Shown: positions 200 to 61,009 of the stretch, piece by piece | Position numbering within the stretch: the first letter of the stretch is position 1 | How the letters are laid out: each line of letters starts with the position of its first letter | IMG/VR virus record: IMGVR_UViG_3300031867_000032 | Span: 1 to 64,000 of that record | DNA length: 64,000 nucleotides | Strand: one strand, 5' to 3' | DNA from: a virus | Lineage: Duplodnaviria > Caudoviricetes | Translations under genes and position numbers: made by a program | The notes under the pieces: generated by a model | Seen by the model: the letters and a program-made list of their open reading frames with translations, nothing else | Told to the model about the DNA's origin: nothing | Databases searched by the model: none

Positions 200-601
200 C
201 GTTAGTCTGTTAGGTAGTAGGTAGTTTATGCCCTCTTACGCGTGTGTGTCGCATTTCCCCGCTCGCACATGTGTGCGCCTATTTTCTCCAATCCTATAGG
301 AATCCGCTAGGTCCTACGCGTGGGCTATCCGATTATCAGGGGCCTTGCACCCGCCCGGCGTTTGGTTTCCCTCTCGCTGTCTAGTAATATACGCTTATGC
401 GGCGCCGTTGTGGGCGAGGATGGCAAACTCGTCTCGTCTCCACAGTCCCTACACAATTGCACACACACGACGCTTGACATACGCCTAACGCATAGCACGG
501 TATCCCCGCCTGCGTTTTGGGCATAACCGCAGGTCAGAGGGGGGATCGCCTCCTGCCCCGTCCAAAAAATTCTCAAGAGCAATTTTGAGTTTTAAATTCG
601 G

Positions 602-721
602 CTATATCCTTGGCTTTCTAGGTCTTTTAATCCTCTGACTACAGTCTCCCGCAAACGTCTTCTTCGCAGCTGTAACTGCCGCAGCTTTCTTACTTCCAAT
701 ACTTTTCTTTATATTTTTCAT
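602..721 (-). CDS. Small basic protein, 39 aa (MKNIKKSIGSKKAAAVTAAKKTFAGDCSQRIKRPRKPRI)
   Basis: ATG at 721, AGAAAGG RBS, consensus promoter immediately upstream, TAG stop. Confidence 0.5.
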   Translation of the reverse strand: MKNIKKSIGSKKAAAVTAAKKTFAGDCSQRIKRPRKPRI

Positions 722-744
722 ATTTTTTCCTTTCTCTTGGTTAT

Positions 745-773
745 ATTATATCATAATAAATATTTTGGGTCAA
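745..773 (-). promoter_or_regulatory. Sigma70/SigA-type promoter, leftward
   Basis: TTGACC-17 nt-TATAAT with extended -10 TG on the minus strand. Confidence 0.75.
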
Positions 774-831
774 TTTATTTTATTTAATTTATGTTTTTAT
801 ATCTAATATATAAAATTTTTATATTTTCCCC

Positions 832-860
832 TTGACAGAAACAAAGAAGTATGTTAAAAT
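832..860 (+). promoter_or_regulatory. Sigma70/SigA-type promoter, rightward, upstream of the packaging/structural module
   Basis: TTGACA-17 nt-TAAAAT with extended -10 TG. Confidence 0.8.
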
Positions 861-895
861 TTAACTAAGTTAAAAATATTTTTAGTAAAGGAGGT

Positions 896-1996
896 TTGTT
901 AGTGGACTTAGACTACTCTCTATCTACTCCAGAAGAGCGAGTAGATTACGTTAAAACTCTTTTAGCTGATAATCCTCCTCTTAATAATAGCACTCTAACT
1001 ATATTAGCAGACTACATTTTATTTATTCGTGATCGTAACCAAACAAAGAAACAACGTGACGCAGACCATCCAATATTAACCCCTAACAGAGAGTTTACTA
1101 TTAACAAGAGGGAGACATCATACGAAGCTTTAGTAGACAAACTTGAAAATGGCGAAGATGGTCTATACAATATTATCCGCAATGATAAAACCCAAATTCT
1201 TGATCCAAAAGACCCAATCACAGAAGAAGATGTGAAAAATATCCCTGGCATTAAAGAATGCCTTGATGTAATTGCTTCTCTAAAAAAGCAATTAGAAACT
1301 GCATCAAAATATCGTCGCAAAGCTTTAACTCAAGCAATTATCGACACTTGAAAACAAGCTTACATTATTAAAGGCAACTATTCAATGATAGGACGTTTAA
1401 AATCAACGTCTCAAATCAAAACAATAGCATCACTCTCCATCCCTGAAGAAATTTACTTCGATGATAATATGATGCCGCACTCTGATAAACCTTTCTCCTT
1501 CCTCAATCCAGAACATGTTTCTTTCTTACTTTGTCACTACCAAGGTTTAAAGCAAGAATCTTGAGAAGATCTTCACTGTGACATGCGGTGACACCTAATC
1601 GACCTTGAAGATCTTACCGAGGAAGCATTGCGGGAAAAGTACCCCATGCTCTGAGATATAGTAGTTTGAAAAGTAGACGGTCTTACTAACGACCAAATCC
1701 GTGAAAGAGTTCTCCAAGAATATGGTGAAGATCATTCAGAACAATATTATTCATCTATTTGACGCAAACGTATTCCTAAACTCATTACTGAGCAATTTCA
1801 AAAGAACTATGTAGAATGATATTTTACAGAAAAAGAACGTGGTTACTGGAAAAAATGTAGTAAATGCGGGCAAATTAAATTAGGACACCCTCTTTTCTTT
1901 GCTAGAAATACTAGTAAAGATGGCTGATATAGTCAATGTAAAGAATGTAAAAACGCTTCAAGAACTATTTCTGTCAAAAAAGTCTCAGAAAAATAG
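896..1996 (+). CDS. Putative DNA-binding regulator, 366 aa (HTH-like region plus C-terminal CxxC...CxxC Zn finger)
   Basis: GGAGG RBS and TTG start; open through 8 in-frame TGA to TAG; C-terminus WKKCSKCGQ...DGWYSQCKECK. Confidence 0.55.
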
Positions 1997-2011
1997 AAAG
2001 AAGGTGACTTT

Positions 2012-3244
2012 ATGACAGTAGATGAAGGATATAAAACATGTTCAAAATGCGGACGTTCATTGAAAGCAAGTGCGGAGTTCTTCAAAATGAAATCTGGAGA
2101 ACGTTGCGATCTATGTAAAGATTGTTTAACTCAATATATCGACAATCGCAATCCAGAAACATTTATGTGAATCCTTGAAATGTTTGATGTTCCTTACATT
2201 GAAAAAAAATGAACGCAACTTACAAATGAACGTTATAAGAAGAACCCTGGTAAGTTTGGACCAAAATCAGTAATTGGTCTTTATTTACGGGCTATGAACA
2301 TGCTTCAATATCGTGATTTAACTTATGCGGACTCTGATTCAATTAATAATGTTGGTAAAGATATTAAAGTAGATGAAGATTATGAAGAACAATTAAAAGC
2401 AAAATTAGAAAGCGGCGAAATTTCTCAAGGTCAATATAATACTCTTACAAAAACAAATCGAGATGTTCAAAAAGAAGGCTATGATGCAAAAGGATTTTTA
2501 ATTCCTGAAGAAGAGACTCAGCCCGAAGAACCGCAAGAGCAGACGCCGCAATATCAAGTAGATCCTAACTACTGAACAGACCAATTAGATGAGTCAGATA
2601 TTAATTATCTAATGCTTAAATGAGGTACTATGTATACTCCTGAAGAGTGAGTAAAAATGGAAACTACTTACAATAAATATTCTCAGGAATATGACCTTAA
2701 CGTAGACCGCGAAGAAGTTCTTAAAAAAATGTGTAAAACTTCTCTTAAAATGGATGAAGCGTTAGACGCAGGTGACGTAACTGGCTACAAGAATCTTGCG
2801 GCCGTCTTTGACCAGCTCCGCAAGTCAGGCAAATTTACTGAAGCTCAAAATAAAGAAGATAGACAACAAGTTCTTTCTTCTATTGGAGAATTAGTAGCAC
2901 TTTGCGAGCAAGAAGGCGGTATTATACACGCTCTGCCGCAATATGATCCTGATCAGTATCCGCAAGATAAAATTGATTTTACACTTAAAGATCTTAAATC
3001 TTACACTTACAGCTTAGTAAGTAATGAACTTGGTCTTGGGGATCTTATTGAATCTTATATTGAGAAACTTGAACAAGCAGAAAGTGATTCTGTTGATATT
3101 AATGCGGGACTTGTAACATCTGCGGAAGAAGAAGCAAGTGACGAACTTACAGATGAAGAAGCAGAAGAATGGCAAGGATTCCTTGAAAATGAAGTTGAAG
3201 CAGAAGCTGAAATGCTTGAACGTTTCTTAGCAGGTGATTTATAA
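2012..3244 (+). CDS. Zn-finger protein upstream of the terminase, 410 aa (candidate packaging accessory/small terminase)
   Basis: Joins track fragments 2294 and 2657 in one frame with TGA=Trp; N-terminal CSKC...CDLCKDC; TAATG coupling to the terminase. Confidence 0.5.
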
Positions 3245-4989
3245 TGGCCTTAAAAGATATTCTTCAAACGACCAATAGACGAAAAGAATTAGATAGCGAT
3301 GCAATTAAAGAAGAAGTCCATAATCATTTAGATGAATATAGAGAATTAATTGCATATTGACGAGTTTATCCTGATAAACTTGTCGATTATTACTTGTCTC
3401 TTGGAAATCCTTACAATTTTAAATTTATTTTTTATCAAAGATTATTCTTGCGAGCACTGTTTCGGCATAAATATGTCTATGCCACTTTCGTTCGAGCTTG
3501 GTCTAAATCATTTATGTCAGTTATGGCTCTAATGTTAAAAGCTATTCTTTATCCTGGAGCTAAGCTATTCACTGTAGCAGGTGGTAAGCAACAGTCTGCG
3601 GAAATCCTTTCAGGTAAAGTATTAGAAATTTGTAAATTAATTCCCGCAATGGAGAGAGAAATTATCTGAGATACGCGAGGTACTCGAGCTCGAACTGCGC
3701 AGACTAAAGATAGTGTTATTTATACATTTAAAAATGGTTCAACATTAGAAAATGTTGCGGCGTCTGAGAAAACTCGTGGACGTCGTTTTAATAGTGGTTT
3801 AATGGAGGAATGTGTAGGTATTGACCAAGATATTCTTAATGAAGTTCTTATTCCTACACTTAACGTTGACCGTATGGTTCAAGGCCAAACTGATCCAAAT
3901 GAACAATTAAATAAAAGTCAAATTTTCGTGACTACTGCAGGTTATAAAAATACGTATAGTTATGAAAAATTAATTGAAATTCTTTGTCGTTCAGTGGTGC
4001 GACCAAAAGATGCAATTGTACTTGGCGGTAGTTGGCGAGTTCCTGTCATCTTCGGGCTCTTGGATAAAAACTTTGTGCGGGACCTCAAGATGGATGGCAC
4101 ATTTAATGAAGACTCATTTGAGCGAGAATATGAATCTAAATGGACTGGCGATATTGAATCTGCATTCTTTAACTCAGAGCGTTTTGATAAGAACCGCCGT
4201 ATTAATCAACCTGAATGAAAATATTCCAATAGAACAAGTAAAGATGGATATTATATTATGGGTGTTGACGTTGGACGATTTGGTTGTACAACTGAAGTAG
4301 TCATTATTAAAGTAACTCCAGGTGCGGGCGACATTCCTCGTAAACGTATTGTTAATATTTATTCATTTGATGAAGAGCACTTTGGTTTACAATCGCTTAA
4401 ATTAAAGCGTTTATTCCAACAATATAAATGTCGCGTCGCTGTAATCGACGGCAATGGCCTAGGTGCGGGACTTGTAGACATGCTGACAATGGATACAATT
4501 GATCCTGATACTGGAGAAACGCTTTACAATTGAGGTGTTATGAATGATGAAGATAATAAGTATCGCAATATGAAAACAGAAGATACAATAACTGATGCTA
4601 TGTATATTATGAAAGCTAATCAGGTATTAAATTCTGAAATGTATGCTTATTGTCAATCAGAAATTAATGCGGGTCGTGTAATATTTTTAGTAGATGAAGC
4701 TATTGCTAAAAACAAACTAATGGCTCAAGCTCAAGGTAAAAAAATGAGCCAATCTCAACGTGCGGATTACCTTATGCCATTTGTCCAGACAAGTATTCTT
4801 AAAGATCAAATGCTAAACTTAATTACAGAAAATGATGGTGCACATATTATTTTAAAACAAGCTTCAAAGAAAATTAAAAAAGATAAATTTTCTGCTTTAA
4901 TTTATGGTTTATATTATTGCAAATTACAAGAAGATGCACGTTCTAAAAAGCGTAAACGTGATATTTCAAAATTTATGTTCTTTAATTAA
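3244..4989 (+). CDS. terL: Terminase large subunit, 581 aa
   Basis: Four track fragments in one frame joined by 4 TGA; Walker A-like FVRAWSKS, RGRR motif, Walker B GLMEE, RNase H-like MGVDVGRFG and terminal KKDKFSALIYG. Confidence 0.9.
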
Positions 4990-10043: not shown

Positions 10044-10143
10044 ACAGAGCCAAGCTCTAATTCCTCTGGGAACGGGGGAATAAATCCAGATAGCTTGTTC
10101 CTAGATCCATAGGATAGCGTCTGAACATTAATTTAATTAAGGA

Positions 10144-10172
10144 GGGAGAGGGTGCGGCCCTCTCCCTTTTAT
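10144..10172 (+). terminator. Intrinsic terminator after the major capsid gene
   Basis: GGGAGAGGG-TGCGG-CCCTCTCCC stem-loop followed by a T-tract. Confidence 0.85.
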
Positions 10173-17832: not shown

Positions 17833-17930
17833 ATTAGAAAAATAGTATTTTTTTCATTTAATAGTAGATATTATTGCGGAGAAATTCCGCTTAGAGATAT
17901 AAGGACATTCCGAGAGGAAGGTGAAATACT

Positions 17931-20900
17931 TTGAAATATTCCAATACTATTGAATATAATATTAAAACTAGTTTAGATTCTAAAGGTTTAACTCAGTTAA
18001 GATCTGAGTTACAAAGTTTAGAATTAAAACTACAAAATATGGGTAATAAAGGTTTATTAGATGAAAAAACTTTTGTAGATGCCCGCAATCAAATTCAAGG
18101 TTTAGGACAGGCTTTAAGTGATGCCTTTAATCCTTCTCTTGGAATGTTAGATTTATCCAAGTTAAACCAAGAACTTAAAAATAATGATGTAACAGCCCAA
18201 GGATTAAAAACTGCTTTTACTTCTCTTGGAGCAGAAGGTCAAGTTGCTTTTAATAATTTAGTTGGTGAATTAGGTAAACTTGATACTGGTATTTTAAGAA
18301 CAAATTCCCAAATAGATAAGTTATTTACTACTTTTAGCAATACTTTTCGTTGGGGACTAGTATCTAGTTTCTTTAGTCAATTTATGAATGCAATTCATAG
18401 TTCTGTAGATTATGTAAAAGAACTTGATGATTCACTAACTCAGATTATGCTTGTTACAGATTATAATCGTGATTCAATGAATGAATTTGCAAGATCTGCT
18501 AACGAAGCAGCTAAAGCTGTTAGTATGACAACTACAGGTATGACTAATGCTTCATTAATTTTTGCTCAGCAAGGTTATGATCTTGGGCAATCTCAAGAAT
18601 TAGCTACATTATCTGCTAAAGTGGCTAATGCTTCTCAGCAAGATACTGCTACTACTTCAGATCAGATTACAGCATATATGAATGCTTATGGTCTTGAAAA
18701 TAGTATTGGTGAACTTACACAAGCAATGGATAACTGAGCATTAATTGCAAATATTTCTGCAGCAGATGTAGGTGAACTTGCACAAGCATCACAGCGAGCA
18801 GCTTCAATGGCAAACGCTGTAGGTGTTAGTGGTGAGCAACTTGCATCACAGATTGCTACGATTGAGTCAGTAACACGAGAAGCCCCAGAACAAATTGGTA
18901 ATGGTCTTAAAACTCTTTATGCTCGTTTCTCAGATATTGCTTCTGGAAAAGAAGATGAAGATGGTTTCACTCTTGGTAAAGTTACTTCAGAGTTAAATAA
19001 GATTGGTGTTCAAGTTCTTGATGAAATGGGTCAAATTCGTGATGTTGGCGATATCATGGAAGACCTTATGGTTATTTGAGATGATCTTGACCAGACAAGC
19101 AAAGTAGCCGCATCTCAGGCTTTAGCTGGTAAATATCAAGTTAATCGTTTTATGGCTTTAATGGATAATTCTGATATGTATGAAGAGTATAAAGGTGCAA
19201 CTGGAGCTAATGCGGCTGGTACTCTTGATATAATGAGTGAAGAATATGCTCAGTCTATTGAAGGACGAAGTGCTAAATTACAAGCTTCTTTAGAAGGATT
19301 ATTTAGTACAATATTTAATACTGATGATATTTATCCTTGAATGGATGCCGCACAAGGAGCTATAGATTTATTACAACAATTTTTTGATGCTCTTGGTGGA
19401 GGACAAACTGTTCTTTTAGGTATTGGTAGTTTATTAATGCAAATATTTAGTAAAAATATGGCACAAGAAATTAATAATGTCGCAACTAATAGAGCAGTTC
19501 AACAACAAAAACTTGAAAATTTACAAAATTCTCAAGCTACGTTAACAACTTTGGGTGCGGCTAATCCTAATCCAAATGATGCTAATTCACAGAATATTTT
19601 AAATTTTGCTCAATATATGCAAGCCAATGCTAAGAATTTTAATGCAGAACAAATGGATCAAGCTAATTCTATTTTACAAGAGTTAGTTCAAAATAGTAAT
19701 GCGGCTACAATGGCCGCAGATAAATTAAAAGAAAGCTTATCTGTTATTGGAATTGGTATTACAGCAACAACAGGTGAAAGTATTTTAGCTCCTTTCTTAG
19801 ATAGTGAAGGAGCAGTAAATGCAACTTTATTATCAGAAGCACTTCAAAATATGTCTCAAAGTGAAGTTGCTGAAATGTTTTCTCATATACAAGAAGATAT
19901 TAAACCGGCAAGAGAAGGCTTATTAGAATTTAATAAAGCTTTGCAAAATTATCAGCAAGAATTAAGAAATGCAAATAGCACCGATGATAGTTGAAGTCAA
20001 AGTCTTGCAAAATTACAAGCGGCACTAGATAATTTAGATGGTAAAATAGATCCTAGTACATATGAACGTTATGAACAAGCAGTTAAAGATATTGTAGAAG
20101 TAACTGAAAATGCAGGGGATCAAACAGCAGAAACTACTGCTGAAGTGGCTAAACTTGCAGATGGATTAGAAAAAGTTGCAGCAAAAGATTTAACTAATTT
20201 AAATCAATTAAATAATGATGCTTTTCAAGCTAAAAATACTCAAATGGCAGCAAAAGATTCCAATAAAGTTGCTGGAGCATTTCAAGAAGGTATGGGATCT
20301 CAAGCTCATATTCAAGAAATTTTAGATACCTTTAATGCAGTTCAACAATTAACTTTTGCTTGACAAGCATTTCAAAATCTTGGTAGTCTTTGAGCTAATG
20401 AAGATTTATCCACTGGAGAAAAAGTTCTTCAGACTATAATGAATCTTACAATGGCTATGCCGCAATTAATTGACGCTATAGACACTTTAAAAAGTGGAGG
20501 CTTAGCACAATCATTTCAAGAACTAAATGATGCTTTATCTAATATTCAAGCAGGAAATATAGATTTTTCTTCTGATGGAAGAATGGTAGAAATTAACGAA
20601 GAATTAAATTCTTTATTAGAAAAAAGAACTACTATTAATGATAAGATTAGTAAAGCACAGCAAGAAATTTATAATAGCACTAAAAAAGTAGCACAAGCTG
20701 AAAGTGAAAGCGGAAAAAATGCTATGACAGGGGCTCAACTAGCATTTAAAAAACTTTTAGCAAAAAAGACGGAAAAGGAACAAAATGAACTTATTTCCAT
20801 ATTAGAAAAAGAACAAATAGCCAATGAAGCAGCTATTACAACAGCAGAAACTACAAGAAGTGCTATTGGAAAAATAATAACTGCTGAGCTAGTTAAACAA

Positions 20901-23900
20901 GTTGCTTTACAGGCGGCTTTAACTTTTGGTATTCCTTTATTATTAGCTGGTTTAGGCGCTGCGGTTGGATATTATCAACAGCAACGAGAGGAAGCAGAAA
21001 AACTAAAGCAAGAACGTTTAGAAGCTTCAAATCAACAAACCGATGAGTTAAAGAAAAATGCAGCAAACATACAAGAGCTTTATAATAATTATAAAGAAAC
21101 AGGAGAAGCGGCTGATGGTTTAAGAGAAGCTCTTGAACAACAAGCTGAAGCTTTAGGTATAGTAGTAACGGCTGCAGATGATTATGATAGTTTAAAACAA
21201 AAAATAGATGAAGCAACAGCTTCTCAATTAGCATATAATGCAGCTTTAAGAGGAGAAGATTCTTCTATCTCAAAAACAACTGCTACCGATGCTGGATTAA
21301 CTTTTGAAGATAAAAAGGCACTAGGAATTGATACGACTTCAGCTTCTTATGTTAGCACGGCTACTGGTCAAATGCAATATCAAGCAGATGGAAGTGTTTC
21401 TGCAGATATAGCAAAAACAGTTGAAAAATCAAAAGAATTAATAGATCTTGAGCAGCAAAGTATTGCAAATCGTAATGCAGAATTGGCTATTTTAGATCGT
21501 GGTAATCCAAAAGAAGAAGAAAAATATCAGTTATTAAAACAGCAAAATACAGAAAGTCAAGATCGAATAGATCGTCTTACTAATTATGTTGAAGGAAATA
21601 AAGATTATTTAGATAATCAATATGCACAAGCTGAAAATAATGTATTATCAGTAGCTTTAAATACAGATCGTTTTAAGGGACAAGAAAATGCTGCTGGTAA
21701 TTTTGAAATAACTTCTTATGAGCAAGCTCTTCAATATGTAAAAAATATTACAGATGAATTAGAAATTACAGAACAACAACAGCAAGAATTAGCTGCAACT
21801 GCTTTAGAATATGCTGGTAATCTTGAAGGCGCCGCGCAAGCTCAATTAGAGATAGCTCAAAATCAAATTGAACAAAATCCTTATGTTTATTCTGGAGTCC
21901 ATGCAGGCGAATCCGGAATGAATAAAATCAATGAATTGGGTGAAAAATTTGATTTATCTAATCAAGCAAAAGCAAAAATATCAGATTTAATAGATTGGTC
22001 TGATACAAATGAGCTAGATGCAAGAATCGCAGATTTAGCTGAAGAAATTGAAGAAGGTTTAAGTCAAGGAATGTCTCTTGATGATATTCTTTCTAAAATG
22101 CAAGAAAATCAAGCGATCGAACTTACAGATGATGAAATTCTTAAGCAAGAACGTGATGATTATGGGTATAATGGAGAAGATTGAGACCGAGATGCAGAAG
22201 GAGTTAAAGATTATGCTGATTCTCTTCAAGAATTGGCAGAAATTTCTGATGAAGTTGCAGATTCATTAAAAGATAATAGAAAAGCTGCTATTAGTATCGC
22301 CGATGCAAATGCTCGATTAACAAAAGGAGTAAAATCTTTACAAGAAAATTGAGAAGATTGAAATGAAATTTTACAAGATAGTTCAAAAGAAGGAACCCAA
22401 GAGTACGCTGAAGCTTTAGAAGGAACTGAAGCAGCATTAAGTAATATTTTTGACTATGATATTAGCGATACTTTTGCAAATTCTACAGCATTTATTAAAG
22501 AACATTTAGACGATATTCAAGCGGCTGCAGATGGTGATGTTGAAGCAATTGATAGATTAAGAGTTGCTGCGGCGACTCAGATTGCTATAGATGCAGGAGT
22601 AGATTTCAGTAATTTAACTGCAGATCAACAACGTATTTGAGATGAAGTTATTAATTATCCTTATGATGATATAGAAATAGGTGCTGCTTTAGATACCACA
22701 GCAGTTTGACCAGTTTTGCAACAAATGCAAGATCAACTTGGGTTAACAACTCAAGAAATGCAGAAAATTTTAGATTCATTAGGATTTGAGCCAAAAATTG
22801 ACTATTTAGAGGTTCCAGCTGATGCTATTCAAAAAGATGAAGTTACAGATACTGGTACTTATACAGATGATAAAGGTCAAACTTATACCTTTGAATTAAG
22901 TTCTGTATTAAATGGAGATACAAATACTTCTGTAAAGATTCCAATAATTAGTGGTTCAAGAACAACTTATCAAGGTGGAGGAAGTGTTGCTCCGCCAAAC
23001 ATTTCTAGTAAAGGTGGTTCTTGTTTTGTGGCTGGTACTTTAATTACCACTTTAACTGGCTTCTCTCCGATAGAACAAATCAAACAAGGGGATATAGTTC
23101 TTTCTTATAATGAATCACTTCATCAACTTGAATATAGTACGGTAGTTCAGACTATGATCCATGATGTTATAGAACCTATTTATACTCTATATATTAAAAA
23201 TGAACAATTAAGAGTTACTAGTATTCACCGCTTCTTAATTTCTCGTGATATTTTCCATTCAGCTCCACAATGAGTACCTGCGACAGACCTCCAAATTGGT
23301 GATTGGATGTTCTTCGCAGATGGCACGTGACATTTAATTTATAACATTGAAGTTAATGTTGAACATCAAATTGTCTATAATTTTGAAGTAGCTGGAAATC
23401 ACAATTACTACGTTGGCCGCAACCAAATTCTTGCTCACAATAAGGGTGGAGGAAAATCCTGCTTTGTAGCTGGCACTTTAATCTCTACTTCTTTTGGATA
23501 TAAGCCTATTGAATTAATTAAACCTAATGATCTTGTACTTTCTTATAATGAATCATTATATCAAAATGAATATAGTAAAGCTGTTCAGACCATGATTCAT
23601 GATACTATAGAACCAATTTATACCTTATATATTAAGAATGAACAATTAAAAGTTACTGGTATCCACAGATTCTTAGTTTCTAAAGATATTAGTTTTGAAC
23701 CACAATGAATTGCCGCACAAGATTTACAAATTGGTGATTGAGTATTATTAGCTGATAGTACTTGACATTTAATTTGAAAGATTGAAGTTAATCTTGAACA
23801 TCAAATTGTTTATAATTTTGAGGTGGCGGGAAATCATAATTACTACGTTGGCCGCAATCAAATTCTTGCTCACAATAAAGGCGGAAGTGGCAAAAAAGGT

Positions 23901-37300: not shown

Positions 37301-40300
37301 TAAAAAAGTACAACTAAATGATAAAAATTATTTTATTGAAGTCTTTGATGAAGAAGAAAAAGATAAATATTTAAAGGGAAAAACTGACGCCGATTCTGAA
37401 GAATATAATGAATATTTTAATGAAAAGTATGTTGGCACAGATGAATATAAAAAGATTTCTTGAAATGATTCTTTGGAGTTTAATTTTTATCTAGCAGAAA
37501 AATTAGATGAAGTTATTTATCAAAGAATTAATAATCCTGCATCTACCGATTATGAAGAAAATAGAGAGCTTTTAAAAGAAAGCATAGATAGCTTAAATAA
37601 CACTATCGAAGATCTATATCTTCAATTAGAAGAAACTTTAAAACAATTTGAGCCATCTGAAGAAGAAGACATTGACCCTAATTCTTTAACACCAGAACAG
37701 CAAGAAAAGTATGATCTTTATAAGAATATTGTTAAACAAATTGATGAAATTTGAGCAATATATATAGATTTTCAAAATATTAAATCATATTTTGACAAAC
37801 CAGGTTGAGGACAAAAATTAGAAGATTGAATTAATGCATATAATATTATTAGCGAGGAAGAGAAAAAAGAATTAGTACATACTATAAAAGAGAATATTAC
37901 AATACAGCGGGATGAAGATTATATTAAATATGTTTCTCTCTTTGAGCCTAAAATAACAGCTTATATATTATATAAATTACGCGAAGAGTCTTTAGATTAT
38001 AGTGACGTTGGATATGACGAATCTATACATTTAATTGATATAGCTAATAAAATAGCTAATGAATTAATGCCTATAAAGGATTTACAGACAAAAGTTTATA
38101 ATTATACGATTATCTATGATAATGAAAATAATATTTATTCTCTTAGAAAATGAAATCCTACTACAGAAGAGCTTAATGCAGAGATAGAACGAATTAATAG
38201 ATGAATATCTTTAATAGAAACAGATATTGCTTCACTAGAGGAAATTATTAGAAATAAAGAATGAGAAGAAGATTCTGAATTATCAGATGAACAAAAATTT
38301 GAAATATTAAATGGATATGAAGAAAATTTAAAAAATGTAAAAGAAAAATTGGCAGAATATCAACGAGAATTAGCATGATGCAATAATAAATTACAAGAAA
38401 TAACCGATAGCAATTCTACAGATAGTGGTTCTACAGATGATAGTTCTACAGATGATAGTTCTACAGATAGTGGTTCTACAGATAGTGGTTCTACAGATAG
38501 TGGGTCTACAGGTAGTGACTCTACAGATAATGATTCTATAGATAGTAGTAATACTACAAATATAATTGGTGAAGATGAAGTAAATAATATCAAAAATACT
38601 GCTAATTTATTTAAAGCTATTTTTGAAAAAATTGATGAAAGAAATTCACAAGAAGAAAATTGAAAGATATTGAATGAAAAACTATCTGAGGCAAATGAAA
38701 ATAGTGTTTATCATTATGCACGAGCAGAAATTAAGGATATTTTAAAAGGTAATAAGCTTAATTCAAGTAATAATACAATAATAAAGTTTAATGCTAATAC
38801 TTTATTATTAGAAAACTTACCAGAAGATCTTGACGATGACAATATTTATAATTATTTCAAATATACCGTAGAAGAAGAGCTTATAGACCAATTAGAAGAA
38901 GAGAATGATGATGAAGAAAAAGTCGTAACAAAGCTTCTCATTACTTATAAACCAATTACTAATGAAAAAGATATTAAAGAAGAGGATTATGATTTTATTT
39001 ATATTTGAAATGATTATTTTAAATATCTTATAAGTCTTTCAACTTTAAAAAATATATTAGATGATAATAATCAATATGTTTATATAGGAGATGATTCTTC
39101 TATATCTTTTGAAGAAGAAAATCTTTTTAAGCAAATTACAGAAATTTCAACTGAAAATTTCTTCTTATATTCTGAAACCGAACCATCTAAATACATTATT
39201 TATAATACCGAAGATGAAACGAGATATTATAAAATTTTAGATGAGAACTTTTTATCAGTTGCCGATTGAAAAAATAATACTATTTACTATTATCTCATTG
39301 ATACAGATGGTATTCCAAGCGAAGAAGACTATTGAGAAATAGGTACTGATATAGACGAAGGTTCAATATCAACTTTCTATGAAAAAATAAATAAAAAATA
39401 TAAAGAAGAATCTTCAGAAGAAGAAGAAAAAGATATTAGCGAAATCACTTATCCGCATTATGTTGTAATAAATACAGAAAAGAAATATGAATATCCTGTT
39501 TACATTAGATTAAAAAGAAAAAATCCCAATATAGATGACGATTATACTAATTATGAATTTAAACCATTAACAGAAGTCCTAGACTATATAAATGAATTCA
39601 TTTATGTTAATAGTTATAATTCTTATGTTTCTAAAGAAGATACTGATAAGATAAAAATAACGACAGTATTAGGACCTGGAAATCAATTAATTAGAGTTAA
39701 TACTGATACTGGGGAAGATTTAAGTTTTACAAATCTTAAAGATACAGATTCTGGTATTATAAGTGCTCAAATAACTGATTTCATCGACAATCAAATTAAA
39801 CGAAAAAATTATGGATTAGGATATAAACTACAATTAAAGTTAGCATCGCCGCATAATCCAGGTGCTATTCTAACTCGTACAATTTTTGTTAATGAAAGAG
39901 GATATTATCAAGTACCTTCTAATATGATTGTAAAAGAAATTAAGCTATTTGATGAAGCTGTTGCAACACTTGATTATATTCTAGAATATGATTTAACTTA
40001 TAATGATGTAACTGAGCCAAATTCTTATGAGGTTAGTGAATCTATAGTTGGTCAAATTTCTGGTGAATGGGATCATAACACTTCTATTGCACCTATTATT
40101 TCTAAAAAATATTGAGCCTATGATCAAAATAATTCAACTATAAACCAACAGATGGTTGACTATTGGAAAGCTATCAGTTTTGATGGAACTCCTTATACAA
40201 TTCTTGATATTCAGCCTACTGGTACTCAGAATTCAATGCGGTATATAGTTGGTCGTTCAGGTGTATTAAATCTCCAAACAGATTATCCTACTTTAAATAT

Positions 40301-40847
40301 GTATATCGCAGGAAAGCGTATGATACAAGCACCTATTACACGTCAACCGTATTTAGATGAATGAGAGTATGTTATTGATGAATCTGTTTATACAGGTAAA
40401 CAAGATTCTGAATCAGAGGATGGTTTCTACTGATGAGTTGTTTATAATAATCAAACTACAGAAGAAACAGATGTTATTGTAAAAGTTCATTTAGAAACAC
40501 CAAAAACTTATGAAGAAACAATTCAAGTAGATGAAGATTCTTCTTTGACGGTAGATGTTTTAGAATTTGATGCTGAGGAAGCTAAGGTTGTAGCAGATAC
40601 TTGGTATAGCTTAGAAGATACTCATTATGCGTCAACAGAAATTTTGGATCCAAAGCCAAATACTATTTATGGAATTGTTAATACTTTAGGTGTTATCGAG
40701 TATAAGATATATTATCTTGACCGAGGTTGATTTAACGTGACATTCCCAAATATTGCGGATAATGACTACTCCATTGCATATGCTCAAGTGCCTGTTTATG
40801 GAATGATAGATTATCGTGCTAATATTATAAAGAAACTATGGAGTTAA
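34380..40847 (+). CDS. Large distal-tail/baseplate-like protein, 2155 aa, with a long acidic insertion
   Basis: AAAGGAGG RBS; one frame with TGA=Trp; MATILSTLYPPLIDTFMPAF start, LGGRYPKF and WWWERKFREEVMEWLNDGEPKLYRSMTEGN motifs. Confidence 0.65.
38415..38549 (+). repeat. Nine tandem 15-bp units (TCTACAGATAGTGGT consensus) encoding STDSG/STDDS
   Basis: Direct reading of the sequence; in frame with the 34380 gene. Confidence 0.9.
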
Positions 40848-43345: not shown

Positions 43346-44458
43346 ATGGCTCGTACAACTAATTATGGATTGGGGCAATATCGTTTTAATAAAGAATATT
43401 CTTATATAGGAGAATTACAGAACTCCACTATAGAATATTATAGTAATGAGAGTTATGGTTCTACAAAATATCAAGATATTCTTGTTACACTTCCTGTTGC
43501 GGAAAATACTAGTACTCCATTAATTCAATATGGAAAAACTTATTATATAGAATTAACAGTACCTCAAAATCAAGAATATACAACAACAATTGATTTAAAA
43601 TTATGTGCTGCAACAACTATTAATCAAAATAGTGCACCTGACCTCAATCGTTTTCAGAATATAAAAAGATTAATAGTTCCGCCAACTCCTAACCCAGATG
43701 ATAAAATCCATAGTCCTGTCTTATTATTTGAGTCTCCTGAGACACAAAATATAAAAGATAATCCTGAGACGCCAGAAAAAGAAGAGGAAAAAGAGACAAT
43801 TTTAGCCGCAGTTATTGAAGATTGTATTGAAGGTATGGGTTTATCTCCGTATCACGTTTATAAATATAAAAATCAATATTTTTATTGTTATAAGAATCTT
43901 AATTCTAGTGAGATATGAAATTCAATAAGTGGAGAAAATGGAGGAGAAAAATCTCCATATTTTATAAAAAATAAAAATGTTAGTACATTGATACAAACTT
44001 GAAAAGTTTCAGAAGGAAAAGAGTCTACTGTAACATATAAGTTTGCATTTTCACCTAAATATAATCTTGAAGGTGGTTATAAATATTTGTTAATTGAAAC
44101 AAATCGAGAAAATGGTTGAAGTCAAACTATGCAATGAATTAATGATAATGGCGAAACTTATTATGGCACTACTTTAGATATAGCTAGTGTTAATTTTAAA
44201 ATATACAGTGTTTCTAATCTTTTGGAAAGAAATGCACTTGGTCAATCACAAATTCAATCTAGTACAGGGCAACTTACTCACATTGGAATTTGGGGCCACC
44301 CAGAACAAGCATTTACTATTAATGGCGAAGAAATTAAAATTGGTCAAAGTGGCTTCTATGAGCTAAATGATTACATTATTAATAATATAGGTGTAATTGT
44401 TACAGATAAACAAGTTGATCGATTTACAATCGATTATGAATATAAAGTGGTTAATTAG
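43346..44458 (+). CDS. Baseplate/tail hypothetical protein, 370 aa
   Basis: AAGGAGG RBS; joins track fragments 43340 and 44222; ends FTINGEEIKIGQSGFYEL...FTIDYEY. Confidence 0.6.
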
Positions 44459-44477
44459 ACAAAGGGGGAAACGATTT

Positions 44478-47183
44478 ATGAGTTTAGAAAGTTTCTACGG
44501 TGGAAAGCAGGGTGTTTCCCCCGTTATTAAAAATAGATTTAAATATATCAATGTTGATGATGAAGCTTACAAGGACCGTATTAATCAAGAAACAAGATTA
44601 ACTTATGATGAATATTTATGTTTAAGAGATAATAAAATTGAACCTTATTGATCTACAAAATGAGAAGATTTATTAGAAAAAGATGAACAAGATAAAAATA
44701 AAACTAAACCTCCTTTAATAGAATGAACTACTACAAAATTAAAGCCATTTACTATGGACGAGTGTTTAAAAGACGTTAATTATACAGATGTTTGGTATGG
44801 AGAACTTTGTATAATTGATACAGATAGTAAATATAATCCTAATAATGGTAAACTTTATCGTCGTACTTTAAAACAAGTTGATAATAAAAATGCTAAAACT
44901 GAGGATACTGCTTATGCAGAATATATAGGGCAAATTGTTGGTCCTATGGGCGGCGTATCTAAATTTGTATTTGGTTCTGTAGATGATGCCCGTAAGATGG
45001 CAGTTGGCGAATCACCAACTTATCCAAGCGATGTTGGTGCTACACCTTTAAATATAGCAAATTGAGATTATTTTTATCAAGATGCCGAAGGAAAAATGTC
45101 TGCCACCCCTCCCACTGGAGAATTGGGTAATGGCACTGTAAAATATGATGATATTGCCGTTTTAACATCAAATAATATTGTCTCAAGCGAAGGAAGTTCA
45201 AATAATTTTAATATTAGAACTGTCCCTGGAGTTGATCTTGATGGAAATGGTGTTCCTATAAGAGAAGATCCTAATAAAGAAGATAGTTTAATATATAATG
45301 ATAGAATTGAATATACTTGATGCAATGTTGTTAGAAAAGATGATGATAAAAATTTAGACGCATGAGTATATATGGGATTTGATATTCCTTATACTGTTTA
45401 TGAATCTAAAGCGGTTAATATTCCCTATTGGTTAAATCTTGATAGCGTTGGATATTCAAAAGATACTCATAATCCAGAGCATCCTTTTTATCACAATTTA
45501 CATTTTTATATTCCAAGAGGAACTAGAGGTATTGGTCCTGAAGAAATTATGGTGGTAGGAGAAGATTTTAATTCCTTACCCAAAAATACCAATCTTTATT
45601 CTTTGGGCGATATAATCTATAATTCTAAAATAGATAAATATAGTTTAAAACCAAATGTTCAATCTATAACACCACAAACAATTCAATGGGAAAAAGATGA
45701 AAATGGCAATGATATAGAAACTACTATAAATAGTACTTCATATTGAGTTGCTAAATGAACTCTTTATAATCCTAAACAGGTAAAAGGTAATGTTGGGCTC
45801 AGAGATGCTCCTGGAGAAGATTCTACTACATACGAAACAGTTTATGTTTATCTTGGTAATTATCGAGATATTCATAGTATTAATTTAGAAAAAGATGGTA
45901 CTTTTTCTATCAATTATTCTGATGGAACTTCTAAAACTTATAATAAAATTATTACTTGAGTTACTGGCGTATCTCTTAATACTACAGATAAAGAAAATGC
46001 TAACTATGGTCAATTCCAAATAACTTTTAATAATAATAAAATACCTGAAATCAATGAGAATTTACATTTAATTAAAAATGTAAATTATGACGACTCTACA
46101 GGCAAAATAACTTTTACTTACAGTGAGCAACAAAATGATAATGCTGAAGGTATTGAAGTTTGAGATATATTAACTGGAAATATTGTTTATCCAAAACAAA
46201 TTGACATAGATACAAATAAAGCTAGTAATAATTATGGTAAAGTAACTTATTATAACAATACTGATTTTAATAATGGTAACTTAAAGCAAAATGCTCAATC
46301 CAAAGATATTGCTACACTTCCTTTAATTAAAAGTAATAATTACAACCCTGATACTGGTATTATTACTTTTACTTATGCAGGAAATTCTAATGATATAACT
46401 GTTCCAACAGATAATGCAATAGAGTATATATCTGTAATGAAAATAGATCCAAACACAGGTGAACTTCAGTATAAATTTAATACAGATAAAGCAACTGATC
46501 CTTGAAGAAATCTTACTGACAATGAGAATAATAATTTTATACTTCGAGATATAGTAGATCTTAAGATTAGTGATGGCGTTGCTCCTGCTTCAGTTTATAA
46601 TTTAGTCAATGGAACGCTAGATACAACAACGGCAAACCAAACTCCTTATTTTGGTCATTTATATGTCTTATATCGTGGTGATAATCATTATAAAGATTTA
46701 GGTCAAGTTAAAGTTAGACCTAATATTGGTAGCTTTTTAACGATCAAAAATACCAAGGATGACTCAACTGATTCTTTTGCTTCTGCCGCAGATGCAATGG
46801 ATTTGTTAAATAACGATGGTTATATTAAAGATGATGTGACATATGCTTCTAATACTGGTGAAATTAAATTTGAAGGAGCAGATCAAACAGGTAGCTTTGT
46901 TATTTTCACTATAGGAGAAGAAAATAACTTAGAAACTCATTTAGCATATTATGATGCAATTTCTAATCCAAAACAATGGAAAGATGCGGGTACCGTTGGT
47001 GGTTCAGGTTCTGGAGGAGCCGCGAGTAATATTCAAAGTCCTAATCCTTTTTATAATCCAGCTCAATCAGATAGTGAAGAATATCTTAAATGAGATAATG
47101 AAGTTGAAATAACTTTCAAAGAAGTTTCTTCAACCAATGGTAGTAATCCATTAATTCTTGGTGACTATTCTATTTGACAGTAA
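44478..47183 (+). CDS. Tail/baseplate fibre-like protein, 901 aa
   Basis: MSLESFYGGKQG start; single frame with TGA=Trp; beta-rich repeats (DSTGKITFTY, PDTGIITFTY). Confidence 0.55.
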
Positions 47184-50589: not shown

Positions 50590-50594
50590 GTTTT

Positions 50595-51038: not shown

Positions 51039-52613
51039 ATGGCTAATAATTTAGTTAAGTTTGTTTACGTTCCTGGTACCGTTACTGCGGAACAAATTGC
51101 AGCTTTTGATGCCAACACAGTCTATTTTATTGCTGGTTCTCACCAAATTTATAAGGGCTCTGTCCTTTATGATGGTGGTTCTTCAACTGCTGCTGCAGAT
51201 CTAGCTCTACTTCGTGAGCAGATTGGCTCCTTACCTGTAAGCCAAGAGTACACCGATCTTATTGACTATATCGATAAGCAGATTGCGGCTGGCGATACTG
51301 CTAATTCCGCAGAAGTAACTGCTCTTGATAATAGTCTTGCGGCCGTTGCTAAGAGTGGTGCAGCTGAGGATGTTTCCGTAGAAGATGCTAACGGTCACTT
51401 TACCGCAACCGATGTTGAAGGTGCCCTAGAAGAGCTTTATACTGCTATTGGTACTGGTGGAACAAATGCTGCTGTTACTGTTACTAAGACTATTGGTGGA
51501 GCAAACGATAGCTTCATTTCTAAGTATACCTTTAGTCAAGGTGGAACTCCTATCGCTAATGGTGAAATTGAGATTGGTAAAGACTTAGTTGCTACCAATG
51601 GCGAATTAGTTGAGGAAGATGGCAATGGTAATTCTGGTACATTTATTAAGATGACCATTGCAAATGGTACTCCATTCTATATTAACGTTGCTGATCTAAT
51701 TGAGTATAACTCTGTTGAGTCTACTAATGAAATTACACTAACAGACACCAATCATAAAATTACTGCTACCGTTGGTGAGATCGCAGCTTCTAAGATTATT
51801 TATCAGGCCGCAGAAGGTGCAACTCCTGCTAAGACAGTTGCTCAGGCTATCAATGCTTTAGAGTCTGCTGTTGGTAGTGGTGGTAGCGTTGATCAGAAGA
51901 TCGCAGATGCTATTGCTGGACTTGATTCTAGTGCAACTGCTACAGCTGGTTCTGCTCTAACTAGCGTTACTGTTACTGACGGTAAGATTACTGGTTCTAC
52001 TGAAGTTGCTCTTACCGCGGACAATATTACTTATGGTTCTGGTACCGCTAAGGCTGCTCTTGATACCATTGGTACAATTCCTGCTACTTCTGCCGCAACT
52101 ACTGTTGTTGGTTACATCGACGAGAAAGTTGGTGCTGGTGTAAGTGCTCTTGATGCAGATGTTGATGCTGCTCTTGGTGCTGGCGATACCGATGCAGAAG
52201 CTATTGCTGTTGTAACTGGTGTTACTGAGGTTGACGGTGTCATCACCGGTGTTGACAGTGCTGCCGCAGACGCCGCTGGTGCTGCTACTCGTGCCAAGGC
52301 CGCCGTTATTGGTCAAGCTGGCGATCTTGCTACTGCTGATACCATTCATGGTGCTAAGCAGTATGCAGATGATGCTGTTGCCGCAGCCCTGTCTGATGTT
52401 AATGATGACATTGCCGCTCTTGATGCTGACCTTGACGCATCTGGTACTGCACAGCATGCCGGCGTATTTGTCATGTCTGGTGTAACTCAGGTTGATGGTA
52501 AGATTACTGCAGTTGATAGCGTTGAAGTTGATCCTGCTGGTGCTGCCGCAACCGCAGAGCAAAATGCTAAAGATTACACCGATGCTGCTCTTACTTGGGG
52601 AAGCCTTGCTTAA
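51039..52613 (+). CDS. Abundant Ala/Gly/Thr-rich fibre or shaft protein, 524 aa
   Basis: Intact ORF, no TGA, capsid-like codon bias; internal repeats (V/M)(T/S)GVT(E/Q)VDG(V/K)IT; ends LTWGSLA. Confidence 0.6.
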   Translation: MANNLVKFVYVPGTVTAEQIAAFDANTVYFIAGSHQIYKGSVLYDGGSSTAAADLALLREQIGSLPVSQEYTDLIDYIDKQIAAGDTANSAEVTALDNSLAAVAKSGAAEDVSVEDANGHFTATDVEGALEELYTAIGTGGTNAAVTVTKTIGGANDSFISKYTFSQGGTPIANGEIEIGKDLVATNGELVEEDGNGNSGTFIKMTIANGTPFYINVADLIEYNSVESTNEITLTDTNHKITATVGEIAASKIIYQAAEGATPAKTVAQAINALESAVGSGGSVDQKIADAIAGLDSSATATAGSALTSVTVTDGKITGSTEVALTADNITYGSGTAKAALDTIGTIPATSAATTVVGYIDEKVGAGVSALDADVDAALGAGDTDAEAIAVVTGVTEVDGVITGVDSAAADAAGAATRAKAAVIGQAGDLATADTIHGAKQYADDAVAAALSDVNDDIAALDADLDASGTAQHAGVFVMSGVTQVDGKITAVDSVEVDPAGAAATAEQNAKDYTDAALTWGSLA

Positions 52614-56387: not shown

Positions 56388-56388
56388 T

Positions 56389-57827: not shown

Positions 57828-58076
57828 ATGGATATATCTCCTTATCTAGGAACTATTATATCAGTAATTATTACTGCTGGAGCAACATATGCGGCTTTTG
57901 CTTCAAGACTTGCTCGCATTGAAACTCTTTTAGATAAATTAGAAAAAGGTATTGATCGAGATAATACTCAAGTTATATCAATAGTCGAAAGGACATATAA
58001 ATTAGAAAGTGATACTAAAACTATGTGAAATCGCATTGATGAATTAAGACTTGATTTAAAACAAATTAGAAATTAA
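57828..58076 (+). CDS. Single-TM coiled-coil protein (holin/XhlA-like), 82 aa
   Basis: Hydrophobic N-terminal helix followed by RLARIETLLDKLE coiled coil; one TGA. Confidence 0.5.
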
Positions 58077-58090
58077 GAAAGGAGTAAAGC

Positions 58091-58930
58091 ATGGATGAAG
58101 AAATTCTAACCCCTTCTGAAGAAGAAATCACTCCTTCTGAGGAAGAAACCGTTCCTTCTAATGAAGAAACTGTTCCTACCGAAGAAGAAACTCCTGTTGA
58201 TGAAACTCCAACAGAAGAAGAAAATGTCCCTGCGGAAGGTGAGTCAGAGGAAGACTATGTTGAACCTCCTTATTACGCAGGATACCGAATTTTTGCTGAA
58301 AATGGTCGCGAAATTACAGATCCAGATTTAACTTTAGGTTATCTTGTAAAAGATCATTTAACTATTAACCATCCCGCAATTCCAGCAAAATATCATTATA
58401 AAGTTCGACATGTAACTTTAACCGATGGAACAGATTTTTATCCAGAGGATAATGATCCCCGCATCAACATGCCAGATAATCAGGTTCCTAGTTGGAGTTA
58501 TGTTGCTCCCGAACCGGAATCTATTATCGAACAATACGTTGATGAAGATGGTCAAATTCAAGATCGAGTAATAACTATACCTGCTCCAACAGTAAAGAAT
58601 GCTTCTGTTGCTTATATCATTGACGCTCCTGCTGTTGAAGCTTATGATGAAATTGAAACAATTTATCATTATATTCTTTATACAGAAAAAGAATTAGCTA
58701 ATAATGCTTTCTTAGCAGAAGGCCCTGTTCGCTTAGATGGCGCAGAAGAGTCTATTAATGATATTACTGAAGTTGTAGCTGACCTTGCAGGTAGCGATAT
58801 TGAAGATCGCGTTGATAATGCAGAAGAACGTCTTACTACAAATAAAGAAGCTTTAGATGAACTTCTATTAGTAGTAGCTGATATTCTTGGTGGCGCGACC
58901 GAAGAAGAAGAAGAAGAAGAACCAGTTTAA
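58091..58930 (+). CDS. Acidic tail-fibre-assembly-like (XkdW-like) protein, 279 aa
   Basis: N-terminal EE(I/T)(T/V)P(S/T) repeats; C-terminal ESINDITEVVADL helix; followed by a small XkdX-like gene. Confidence 0.45.
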   Translation: MDEEILTPSEEEITPSEEETVPSNEETVPTEEETPVDETPTEEENVPAEGESEEDYVEPPYYAGYRIFAENGREITDPDLTLGYLVKDHLTINHPAIPAKYHYKVRHVTLTDGTDFYPEDNDPRINMPDNQVPSWSYVAPEPESIIEQYVDEDGQIQDRVITIPAPTVKNASVAYIIDAPAVEAYDEIETIYHYILYTEKELANNAFLAEGPVRLDGAEESINDITEVVADLAGSDIEDRVDNAEERLTTNKEALDELLLVVADILGGATEEEEEEEPV

Positions 58931-58950
58931 AGGAAAGGTAGGTAATTATT

Positions 58951-59118
58951 ATGGTTACACGTAGTGCTTATAAAATTATCAAACGTGCTGTTATCCTTCG
59001 CATTAATCGTGGCGAGGATCCTATTGAGGTAATCGATTCTTATCCTAAGCTTTCTGACACTCAGCGTGCACAGATGCTAGTCGAGCTTCAGGAAGAGGGC
59101 ATTATTGCCGGTGAGTAA
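58951..59118 (+). CDS. Small XkdX-like protein, 55 aa
   Basis: AGGT RBS; MVTRSAYKIIKRAVILRINRGED...; typical position before holin. Confidence 0.5.
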   Translation: MVTRSAYKIIKRAVILRINRGEDPIEVIDSYPKLSDTQRAQMLVELQEEGIIAGE

Positions 59119-59120
59119 TT

Positions 59121-59477
59121 ATGGATTTATCCGCAGTAACTAGCTATATCTCTCCTATCATTTTAATAGCATGCTTAGGAGTTGGATATACACTTCATAC
59201 TTTAAATAATAAAATATTAAATAGTTTTATTCCTGTTATTTCTGCTTCTCTTGGAATAACTGCCGCTGTTTGAAGTCTTGGAATGTTTGACCTTCCCACT
59301 ATCGTAACTGGTATGATTAGTGGACTTGCGGCGACTGGTATGTATGAAGCCTTTAAAAATATTTTAGGTTTACCGCAAACATATGCGGCTGCTATGGCAT
59401 TACCAGAAATTCCTTACGGAGAAGTCTTAGAAGATACTGATGATTCTCCTCGTGGAGAACACTTCGCAAAGGAGTAA
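59121..59477 (+). CDS. Holin, 118 aa
   Basis: Three hydrophobic segments, GMISGLAATGMYEAFK holin motif, directly upstream of the endolysin; one TGA. Confidence 0.8.
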
Positions 59478-59479
59478 AT

Positions 59480-61009
59480 GTGAAAGAACCCGTCATTGAT
59501 GTTTCACATTGAGACGGTACAGTAGATTACGCCTCATGGATTGCTAAACACAATCTATGGGGCGTTATTGTCAAATGTGGCGGCAATGAAACAAAATTAG
59601 GTCGCTATACTGACTCTCAATATGAAAATAATTACAAACGTGCAAAGGCCGCAGGTCTTCATGTTGGTGCGTATTATTATACTGTTTGCACTTCTGTAGC
59701 AGAAGCTAAGAAGGACGCAGAGCATGTTATTGGACTATTACAAGGTCATGATTTTGATATGCCAATTTATATGGATGTAGAAGATCCTCGTCAGTTTAAA
59801 CTTTCAAAACGTGAATTAACTGACGTAATTAAAACTTTTTGTGATGCTTTAATTGATGCTGGATATTATGCAGGTCTTTATACTGGTGGGTATGCTTGAT
59901 TAAATAATATGTATAAAGATGAATTAGATGATTATGCTAATTGAATTGCTTGATGGCGAGCATCTTGGCCTACAGAAGCTGGCCCTATCGGTTTATGGCA
60001 ACAAGGTACAAGACGTTTAAGTACTGGTGAAATTTATTATGATGATGTATCTGGTGCTACCGATTTTAGTTGATGCGTAATTGATTATCCTGCCCGCATT
60101 AAAGCTAATCAAAAGAAAGAAACTAACGAAAATAGTGATTCTAAGGAGTCAACAGTGGCAGATAACAGACTTACAAAATTCTGTAATATAATGTATACTG
60201 CATGTGCTGAATGATCTCTTGGTTATGATCAATACAATCGTTGAGATATTCGCGATGGTGGTGAATGCGACTGTAGCTCATTAGTTATTTGAGCAGCACA
60301 ACAAGCTGGATTTGATACAGGTTCCGCATCATATACTGGAAATATGTCTAGTAATTTTACAGCTCGTGGATGACAACGCATTCCCGCAGATTTATCTCAA
60401 GCTAGACCTGGCGATATTTTATTAAATGATACTTACCATACTGCCGCAGTAATTTCTGGTTATGGTTGGGATGCTAAAATTGCACAAGCGTCTATTGATG
60501 AACGTGGTCGTGCAACTGGCGGCTCTGAAGGGGATCAAACTGGAAATGAAACTAATGTAAAAGGTATTTATACCTACGGTCGTGGTTGAGATTGTATTCT
60601 TCGTTTTACTGGAGAATCAACTTCCGGTGCAGATACAGACAATTATATCATTAAATTAGATGTTGACGGGGCGGGCGGCCCTGCGACAGTTAGAGCTTGA
60701 CAAATTTCTCTAGGCACAGAAACTGATGGAGTTATTTCCGGTCAAGTTTATGATAGTAGAGATTATTTCTGAGCAATGAACGCAGTAACTTTTGAGCATA
60801 GTGGCTCTGCTTTAGTACGTGCTGTTCAACGTAAAGTTGGTGCAGACGTTGATGGTTACTGAGGTCCTGCGACTTCAAGAGCAATTCAAAACTTCTTAAT
60901 TGAACATGGTTTTGATGTAGGCGACGCAGGAGCAGACGGTTACTTTGGAACTGATTCTGTAAAAGCTTTGCAACGTTCTCTTAATAGCTCTAATAATCCT
61001 TGAAAATAA
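59480..61009 (+). CDS. Endolysin, 509 aa: GH25 muramidase, CHAP/NlpC-P60-like domain and peptidoglycan-binding repeats
   Basis: GGAG RBS and GTG start; IDVSHWDG, VGAYYY, MDVED; CDCSSLV...PGDILLNDTYHTA; VDGxxGPAT repeats; about 14 in-frame TGA, so absent from the track. Confidence 0.9.

Follow-up and report, generated by a model that had tools for sequence, protein, structure and literature searches.

The phage contig IMGVR_UViG_3300031867_000032 (81,495 bases; Caudoviricetes) was analysed mainly through its first 64 kb, hereafter the window (64,000 nucleotides), in which the pentamer TGCGG and its complement CCGCA recur throughout. The source is an SPbeta-like rumen phage that reads TGA as Trp: coding coverage is 93 % under genetic code 4 compared with 67 % under code 11, the gene calls of which were dropped, and the head genes match SPbeta-like PHROGs. 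Dispersed over both strands of the window are 196 copies of TGCGG/CCGCA (positions 398 to 64000; 91 plus, 105 minus) and 34 copies of a second word, CCAAGAG/CTCTTGG (734 to 62260), identified by a k-mer search with TGCGG held fixed. TGCGG is one half of a two-word signal that is real, shared by a phage clade and more structured than first noticed. An earlier description made from the letters alone (the sequence-only reading) had proposed a genome-wide iterated word, which is borne out both along the genome and across the clade, while overlooking CCAAGAG, the polarity of the signal and the recoded TGA.

Base composition predicts 34 copies of TGCGG/CCGCA for the window, and the whole contig holds 257. 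Under a maximal-order Markov model, a control that the sequence-only reading had proposed, it is the top 5-mer (z 10.5). The local counts of that reading were sound, with 21 copies in 601-4000 (1.95 expected) and nine in 59000-61000, as was its view that codon usage alone is insufficient. In the coding DNA of the contig (code 4 genes) we counted 250 copies compared with 68 after within-gene synonymous shuffling (200 shuffles, highest 93; z 23.6), and the enrichment persists when codon-junction dinucleotides are also kept (247 versus 125, highest 146). Enrichment is present in each of the six frames (observed 19/21/80 and 33/64/33, expected 7/3/30 and 8/16/3), in keeping with the earlier claim of both strands and all codon phases, and the intergenic DNA of six genomes holds 131 copies versus 33 expected. 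The signal is specific for T, the other NGCGG words together having an observed/expected ratio (O/E) of 1.00; TGCGGA and TGCGGG are enriched and TGCGGT is the least enriched extension (1.4x). The coding and non-coding strands carry 119 and 128 copies (O/E 3.2 and 4.6), and along whole genomes the word is equal on both strands with no clustering at the ends. That it merely reflects codon pairing, Ala-rich proteins or the avoidance of restriction sites such as GCWGC is refuted and retains virtually no probability: the junction-dinucleotide null does halve the excess, GCWGC is depleted (0.74) and GCGGC in phage PMBT24 does resemble a by-product of restriction avoidance (GCAGC 0/44), but the six frames, the intergenic DNA, the extensions TGCGGA and TGCGGG and the specificity for T all speak against it.

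The bases 3′ of TGCGG are also constrained. With amino acids held fixed, G/C is preferred at +0 and T is avoided from +0 to +2, followed by a further preference for G/C at +5 and +6 (z +13 for G at +5 in six pooled genomes). The profile is over by +7, about 11 nt from the first G of TGCGG, while effects on the 5′ side are weaker and limited to the nearest three bases. The extended form is thus TGCGG followed by S/not-T, not-T, not-T, N, N, S, S, and in full it is enriched 7.4x. The profile is alike on coding and non-coding strands, and the +5 preference recurs in relatives that carry variants of the word (G022, G024, G028 and G030). No palindromic extension was seen. A long GC-rich tract 3′ of the word was considered and rejected, since whole genomes show just +0 to +9 (1.11x) and then ≤ 1.03x; the weak GC tail seen earlier arose because homologous loci overlapped.

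With TGCGG held fixed, the top remaining word in the coding DNA of the contig is CCAAGAG, with 46 copies versus 8 expected and the consensus (T)CCAADAG (G>T>A at D). These anchors lie within genes in 46 of 47 cases, half of them antisense. In the source genome CCAAGAG is followed by TGCGG on its own strand at 20-150 nt in 29 cases, compared with 9.4 expected (p 0.0025, corrected for window choice), while upstream and opposite-strand windows are near expectation. Put differently, about half of the anchors are followed by TGCGG on the same strand within 150 nt and about a fifth are preceded by one. The coupling was repeated in five distant genomes (observed/expected 25/10, 69/29, 45/20, 74/37 and 54/25) and stands at 332/179 in other genomes. 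It has a sharp onset at 20 nt, holds at 2-2.8x up to 125 nt and has faded by about 400 nt, and strong TGCGG sites are coupled more than weak ones (2.6 versus 1.4). Facing TGCGG..CCGCA pairs at 25-100 nt are in excess (343/223) compared with back-to-back pairs (235/222), an excess also seen, more weakly, for one control word. Regular spacing of the anchors was rejected, merely a mild short-range depletion being found. A literature search on both words returned nothing relevant, and we found no prior description of either word or of a word pair with defined spacing.

Examples of the pair occur between and within genes. On the minus strand of an intergenic region (649-740), CCAAGAG at 740-734 is followed by TGCGG 57 and 87 nt on (683-679 and 653-649), and on the plus strand of a coding region (36014-36105) CCAAGAG at 36014 precedes TGCGG at 36086 and 36101. 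A four-part arrangement of both strands, CCAAGAG > TGCGG > < CCGCA < CTHTTGG (51242-51496), falls in an Ala-rich fibre gene and may be due to chance. In intergenic DNA CCAAGAG has an O/E of 44/3.2; in the relatives G003, G010 and G013 it is often just 3′ of a TATAAT box, and CTCTTGG there often overlaps a TTGA -35 box.

Certain sites singled out by the sequence-only reading required adjustment. The terminator-like hairpin after the major capsid gene (10143-10170, plus strand) does contain TGCGG at 10153, spanning the loop and the stem end and not the loop alone. The GCGGA/TCCGC inverted repeat upstream of the tape-measure gene (17875-17890, plus strand), described as a hairpin at 17876-17890, is present, although TGCGG derives from its left arm only, starting at 17875. 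The supposed AT-rich insertion at 36800-39400 has no copies but is not an insertion; it falls in the acidic middle of a TGA-recoded structural open reading frame (ORF) of 2155 aa (34380-40847, plus strand) that holds a motif gap at 36722-39452. The gap says little, because just 0.55 copies are expected at 36800-39400 under the null. The longest TGCGG-free stretch of the window is 2980 nt of tail genes (43806-46786).

In most of some 120 related loci (capsid identity 48-90 %) no 5-mer ranks above TGCGG, and relatives with the word use codes 4, 11 and 15. Some lineages carry variant words, namely TGCCG, CGCGG, GGCGG and BGCGC. The cultured Enterococcus phage EF1 has CCAAGAG (48/12) with [TG]GCG within 20-50 nt downstream (20/3.0), TGCGG itself not being enriched. 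Across all of these forms only the GC at positions 2-3 is invariant and the first base varies. Coupling to CAAGAG is kept in G022, G024, G028 and G019 and weak or absent in G027, G030 and G004, and a de novo search downstream of the anchor returned the genome's own variant as top word in G000, G003, G005, G010, G019 and G022. Neither word is present in a 50 kb stretch of SPbeta or in the Staphylococcus SPbeta-like, Clostridioides, Kirov and GVE3 stretches, and three relatives (L058-L060; GC 61 %, capsid identity 62 %) show no excess of TGCGG or CCAAGAG. Two phages were rejected as carriers: phAss-1, where GCGGC is the top word and has no polarity, and PMBT24, where GCGGC probably stems from GCWGC avoidance. 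A further enriched word in G005, G010 and G013, TGACC/GGTCA (z 8-10), is possibly a secondary site or a by-product of GATC avoidance.

Comparison with a relative at 84 % nucleotide identity showed 56 % of TGCGG copies kept versus 31 % of control words. In an outgroup-polarised comparison, with small counts, gains of TGCGG run at 2.1-2.7x and losses at 0.3-0.66x background. Within a cluster of some 15 strains from the human gut, the mean frequency of synonymous alleles creating TGCGG is 0.69 versus 0.47 for matched alleles (73 single-nucleotide polymorphisms (SNPs); 0 of 5000 draws as high) and that of CCAAGAG-making alleles is 0.91 versus 0.54 (8 SNPs), while six control words show no frequency excess in the same test. 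The shift points to weak selection or biased gene conversion, not mutation bias. The sequence-only reading had raised a methyltransferase or repair bias, and a methylation-linked repair or mutational bias (HIP1- or Vsr-like) might make or protect the word without benefit. The deamination neighbours TGTGG and TGCAG are indeed depleted (O/E 0.68 and 0.76) and gains do exceed background, but the losses are reduced, the word-making alleles rise in the population and no such bias can yield a profile 11 nt long or tie the word to another one 100 nt off. Nor did the co-occurrence check that had been proposed yield a methyltransferase that accompanies the word: among 16 relatives PF00145 (C5) is found in one and PF01555 (N6/N4) in two to three, other families and host enzymes not having been searched. 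The explanation is largely refuted and very improbable, and mutational and codon artefacts taken jointly have at most a slight chance.

Genome-wide iterated, frame-independent words are known in HIP1 of cyanobacteria, the uptake signal sequences (USS) and DNA uptake sequences (DUS), and the FtsK-orienting polar sequences (KOPS), and the Pasteurellaceae USS core contains TGCGG. Likeness to HIP1 and to uptake sequences had been suggested for the phage word and is not upheld. The word differs from these systems in being non-palindromic, in having no cognate methyltransferase and in not being polarised towards a terminus, and the Pasteurellaceae pattern (a 9-nt core ending TGCGGT with T-rich flanks) is unmatched, T being avoided 3′ of the phage word and TGCGGT enriched just 1.4x.

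Beyond the window, the right arm of the contig (68435-81207) carries an operon syntenic with SPbeta yorF-yorL, encoding an SSB-like protein, a Sak4-like ATPase, YorH, DnaB, a DnaG-type primase, RecJ and DnaE; RuvC is also encoded. The primase (contig 75643-76710) is of DnaG type by both sequence profile and fold, with a zinc-binding domain (ZBD) and a TOPRIM domain (Aquifex primase 2AU3, Foldseek E 8.8e-17). Foldseek gave no match for YorH at E ≤ 0.001, and what VIA matched, the DnaD C-terminal domain 2zc2 (Z 5.1, root-mean-square deviation 3.1, 68 aligned) and SPP1 G39P (Z 4.0), is weak and below trust level.

The geometry of the pair implies an enzyme complex moving 5′ to 3′ along one strand, past CCGCA first and CTCTTGG next, as DnaB with a trailing primase does. 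We consider the chances about even that the DnaG-type primase starts at template CCGCA, with CCAAGAG/CTCTTGG serving as a loading or pause signal of the phage primosome. The primase would recognise 5′-CCGCA-3′ on the single-stranded template (core 5′-GCA-3′, with A cryptic) and make an RNA primer of ~11 nt with the start pppGCGG and a preferred G/C end. The helicase, moving 5′ to 3′, would reach CTCTTGG 20-150 nt further on along the same strand, and loading or pausing there would place the trailing primase over CCGCA. YorH and DnaB are candidate readers of CTCTTGG, the former by its gene position and a weak DnaD-like fold match, and the presence of the same anchor word in EF1 points to a reader encoded by the phage. 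The initiating dinucleotide would then be the invariant GC, with the cryptic base at the variable first position, and the 3′ profile would correspond to the primer. Because both strands carry the signal, forks would be needed in both directions, crossing each region both ways through recombination-dependent or multi-site initiation, and convergent pairs would have the geometry of bidirectional initiation.

DnaG primers are 10-12 nt long, a length to which the 3′ profile ending at +6/+7 may correspond. Known primase sites include 5′-(G/T)2GTC-3′ of T7, CTG of E. coli, CTA of S. aureus and GC(G/C) of M. tuberculosis, and constancy of GC beside a changeable first base would be consistent with a primase trinucleotide, in which a cryptic 3′ base adjoins a dinucleotide initiated with a purine. 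The site 5′-GCA-3′ of the phage SP6 primase (PMC5737085) equals the putative template core, and T7 primase extends GTC to a pentamer (PMC12839067). The phage word would share with primase sites its core, its pentamer length and a putative variable cryptic base, and the phage encodes a primase with ZBD and TOPRIM domains; the word differs in that we found no primase sites reported as selected 3-4x genome-wide on both strands or as having a second word that fixes their location. The n′ primosome assembly site (n′-pas) of phiX and the single-strand initiation (ssi) sites of plasmids are single structured loci; they too combine a loading signal and a priming site on one strand, whereas the phage has dozens to hundreds of unstructured copies inside genes.

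In tracking motif class, primase and RecJ rank second and third of 32 core genes, and the motif-sharing clade does not appear in the Sak4, DnaE and topoisomerase trees. This comparison, which covers few independent events, keeps the former two as candidates and speaks against the latter three. If ZBD residues set the cryptic base, primases should follow the first base of the word; strict-T genomes do form one primase clade, a pattern mostly explained by kinship and not simply fitted by G022 and G027. In a lagging-strand test the O/E of CCGCA was only modestly higher on the coding strand in most genomes.

A number of observations weigh against the assignment to a primase. The main difficulty is that there is no strong strand or lagging-strand bias (119 versus 128 copies). 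The first T of TGCGG is conserved no better than background, about two independent events underlie the co-variation with primase, and in following the motif a head protein scores as well as primase does. Accelerated primase evolution in the TGCCG lineage was rejected as proof of co-evolution, not being specific to primase. G022 keeps a strict first T with a primase lacking the Zn ligands, and SPbeta has an equivalent operon, yet neither word occurs in its 50 kb stretch. Chi sites, too, would be expected to show a 3′ context and convergent pairs, and the fit of the GC core and variable first base to a primase trinucleotide is statistical only. In the primases of the TGCCG lineage (L158 and L159, from G022 and G021) the ZBD zinc ligands are lost, ICH having become VSH and both later Cys having been replaced.

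Likeness to Chi, another suggestion of the sequence-only reading, remains the main rival. TGCGG is, like Chi of RecBCD/AddAB and of the Chi-rich phages P1, LLS and MD8, a short non-palindromic G-rich word, over-represented and, as in those phages, selected against codon usage. It may be a site of the host AddAB that recruits host recombination or survives resection, with CCAAGAG as a separate or accessory signal, which we regard as unlikely but not negligible. Firmicute Chi words hold GCGG (AGCGG in B. subtilis, GAAGCGG in S. aureus), convergent pairs fit break repair, and TGCGG is mildly over-represented (1.4x) on the coding strand of Lachnospiraceae chromosomes. In E. coli the activity of Chi is dependent on nucleotides 4-7 to its 3′ side, near the +5 to +7 preference, and the preference at nucleotides 5-7 would be compatible with nuclease cutting a few nt 3′ of Chi (PMC5041463). 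However, the Lachnospiraceae excess depends on reading frame and comes with neither the 3′ profile nor CCAAGAG, and the profile is absent from sampled Firmicute chromosomes. The end and strand polarity expected of Chi are missing, the word being strand-symmetric and changing between phage lineages; its partner shrinks to 3-4 nt in EF1, and we found no second word described for Chi. Chi-rich lambdoid phages are without a Rec module (PMC12315714), whereas the source phage has its own recombination genes (Sak4, the SSB-like gene, RecJ and RuvC).

The signal may instead steer recombination or end-processing by the phage itself, with RecJ resecting the CCGCA/CTCTTGG strand 5′ to 3′ and stopping, or handing over to Sak4/SSB; this seems rather unlikely. 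The polarity would suit any enzyme that tracks that strand 5′ to 3′, RecJ follows the motif class nearly as well as primase (area under the curve 0.98), biased conversion predicts the allele-frequency shift equally, and a phage analogue of Chi would need its signal on both strands. On the other hand, no RecJ protein is known to read sequence, the Sak4 tree does not follow the motif clade, the AddB/RecB-type nuclease family has no match in 16 relatives, and the invariant GC and variable first base are left unexplained. Taken jointly, a recombination signal of host or phage is a distinctly minority possibility.

Another DNA-tracking or DNA-binding phage protein as reader, be it the sigma-like protein (896-1996), terminase or a nucleoid protein, appears quite unlikely. 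The sigma-like gene is found in EF1 and the motif-bearing genomes and was not found in phAss-1, it is the most diverged gene of the TGCCG lineage, and intergenic CCAAGAG in relatives often overlaps sigma70-type promoters. However, 46 of 47 anchors lie within genes, half antisense, the variable 20-150 nt spacing is unlike that of promoter elements, and packaging is one-directional whereas the signal is strand-symmetric. The nucleoid, packaging and self-recognition roles proposed by the sequence-only reading likewise leave the one-sided 3′ profile and the same-strand coupling unexplained.

How replisomes choose among many trinucleotides is an open question, stated as such for T7 (PMC12839067). 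With the priming signal of the phage primosome as the favoured reading, this choice seems to be readable from the genome, as a two-word code that is under selection and has set spacing, clade variants and a cultured carrier, EF1. It is a tentative proposal, clearly short of an even chance, that the large gut phage clade and EF1 use a sequence-programmed primosome in which the helicase is loaded or halted at the 7-nt word and priming starts at a primase site close by. In that case, with copies on both strands within genes and some facing each other, replication would start or restart almost anywhere, from primer positions written in the genome. Were the recombination reading true, the pair would represent a Chi-like system with an undescribed second signal. 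Under either reading, selection for DNA-level signals acts on the silent sites of these common gut phages, with consequences for the interpretation of their codon use and for their recoding in the laboratory.

The TGA=Trp codons (window 896-61701; contig 64000-81495) are mostly in structural and lysis genes, and none occurs in the portal, protease, capsid, tail tube or core replication genes. The same recoding of structural and lysis but not core replication genes is described for the Agate clade, of which the source phage may be a member; Agate-type phages are reported with a bidirectional GC skew (Borges et al., bioRxiv 10.1101/2021.08.26.457843). In the passages covered on the Agate clade, the SPbeta operon and the Enterococcus phages EF1/VRE9, no description of the word pair was seen. 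No CRISPR-spacer-like match was found in 400 Lachnospiraceae genomes, no named host emerged from lysin homologues, and the metagenome-assembled genome assignments of related contigs are too mixed to be trusted for a host call.

Other features include a perfect parS palindrome TGTTTCACGTGAAACA at 184-199, present as a single copy each in G010 and G039 and absent from the fetched sequence of 15 other relatives. The window contains no tRNA. A gene with a GmrSD N-terminal (DUF262) domain (L023:10345-11364, contig 72341-73363) lies between dnaE and recJ, has a GC content of 25 % and is without TGCGG. A portion of G037 absent from the source contig (55310-61289) encodes type II topoisomerase subunits and a probable DNA ligase, as judged by inspection of the sequence; topoisomerase is present in the gut clade and not in EF1. 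Across the whole contig the palindromes or near-palindromes TTCGAA, GAATTC, GATATC, GCGC and GCWGC are depleted, which suggests restriction-site avoidance. The tape measure protein (17931-27287; 3118 aa) contains two tandem Hint-like segments (CFVAGT ... HN) near residues 1700-1980.

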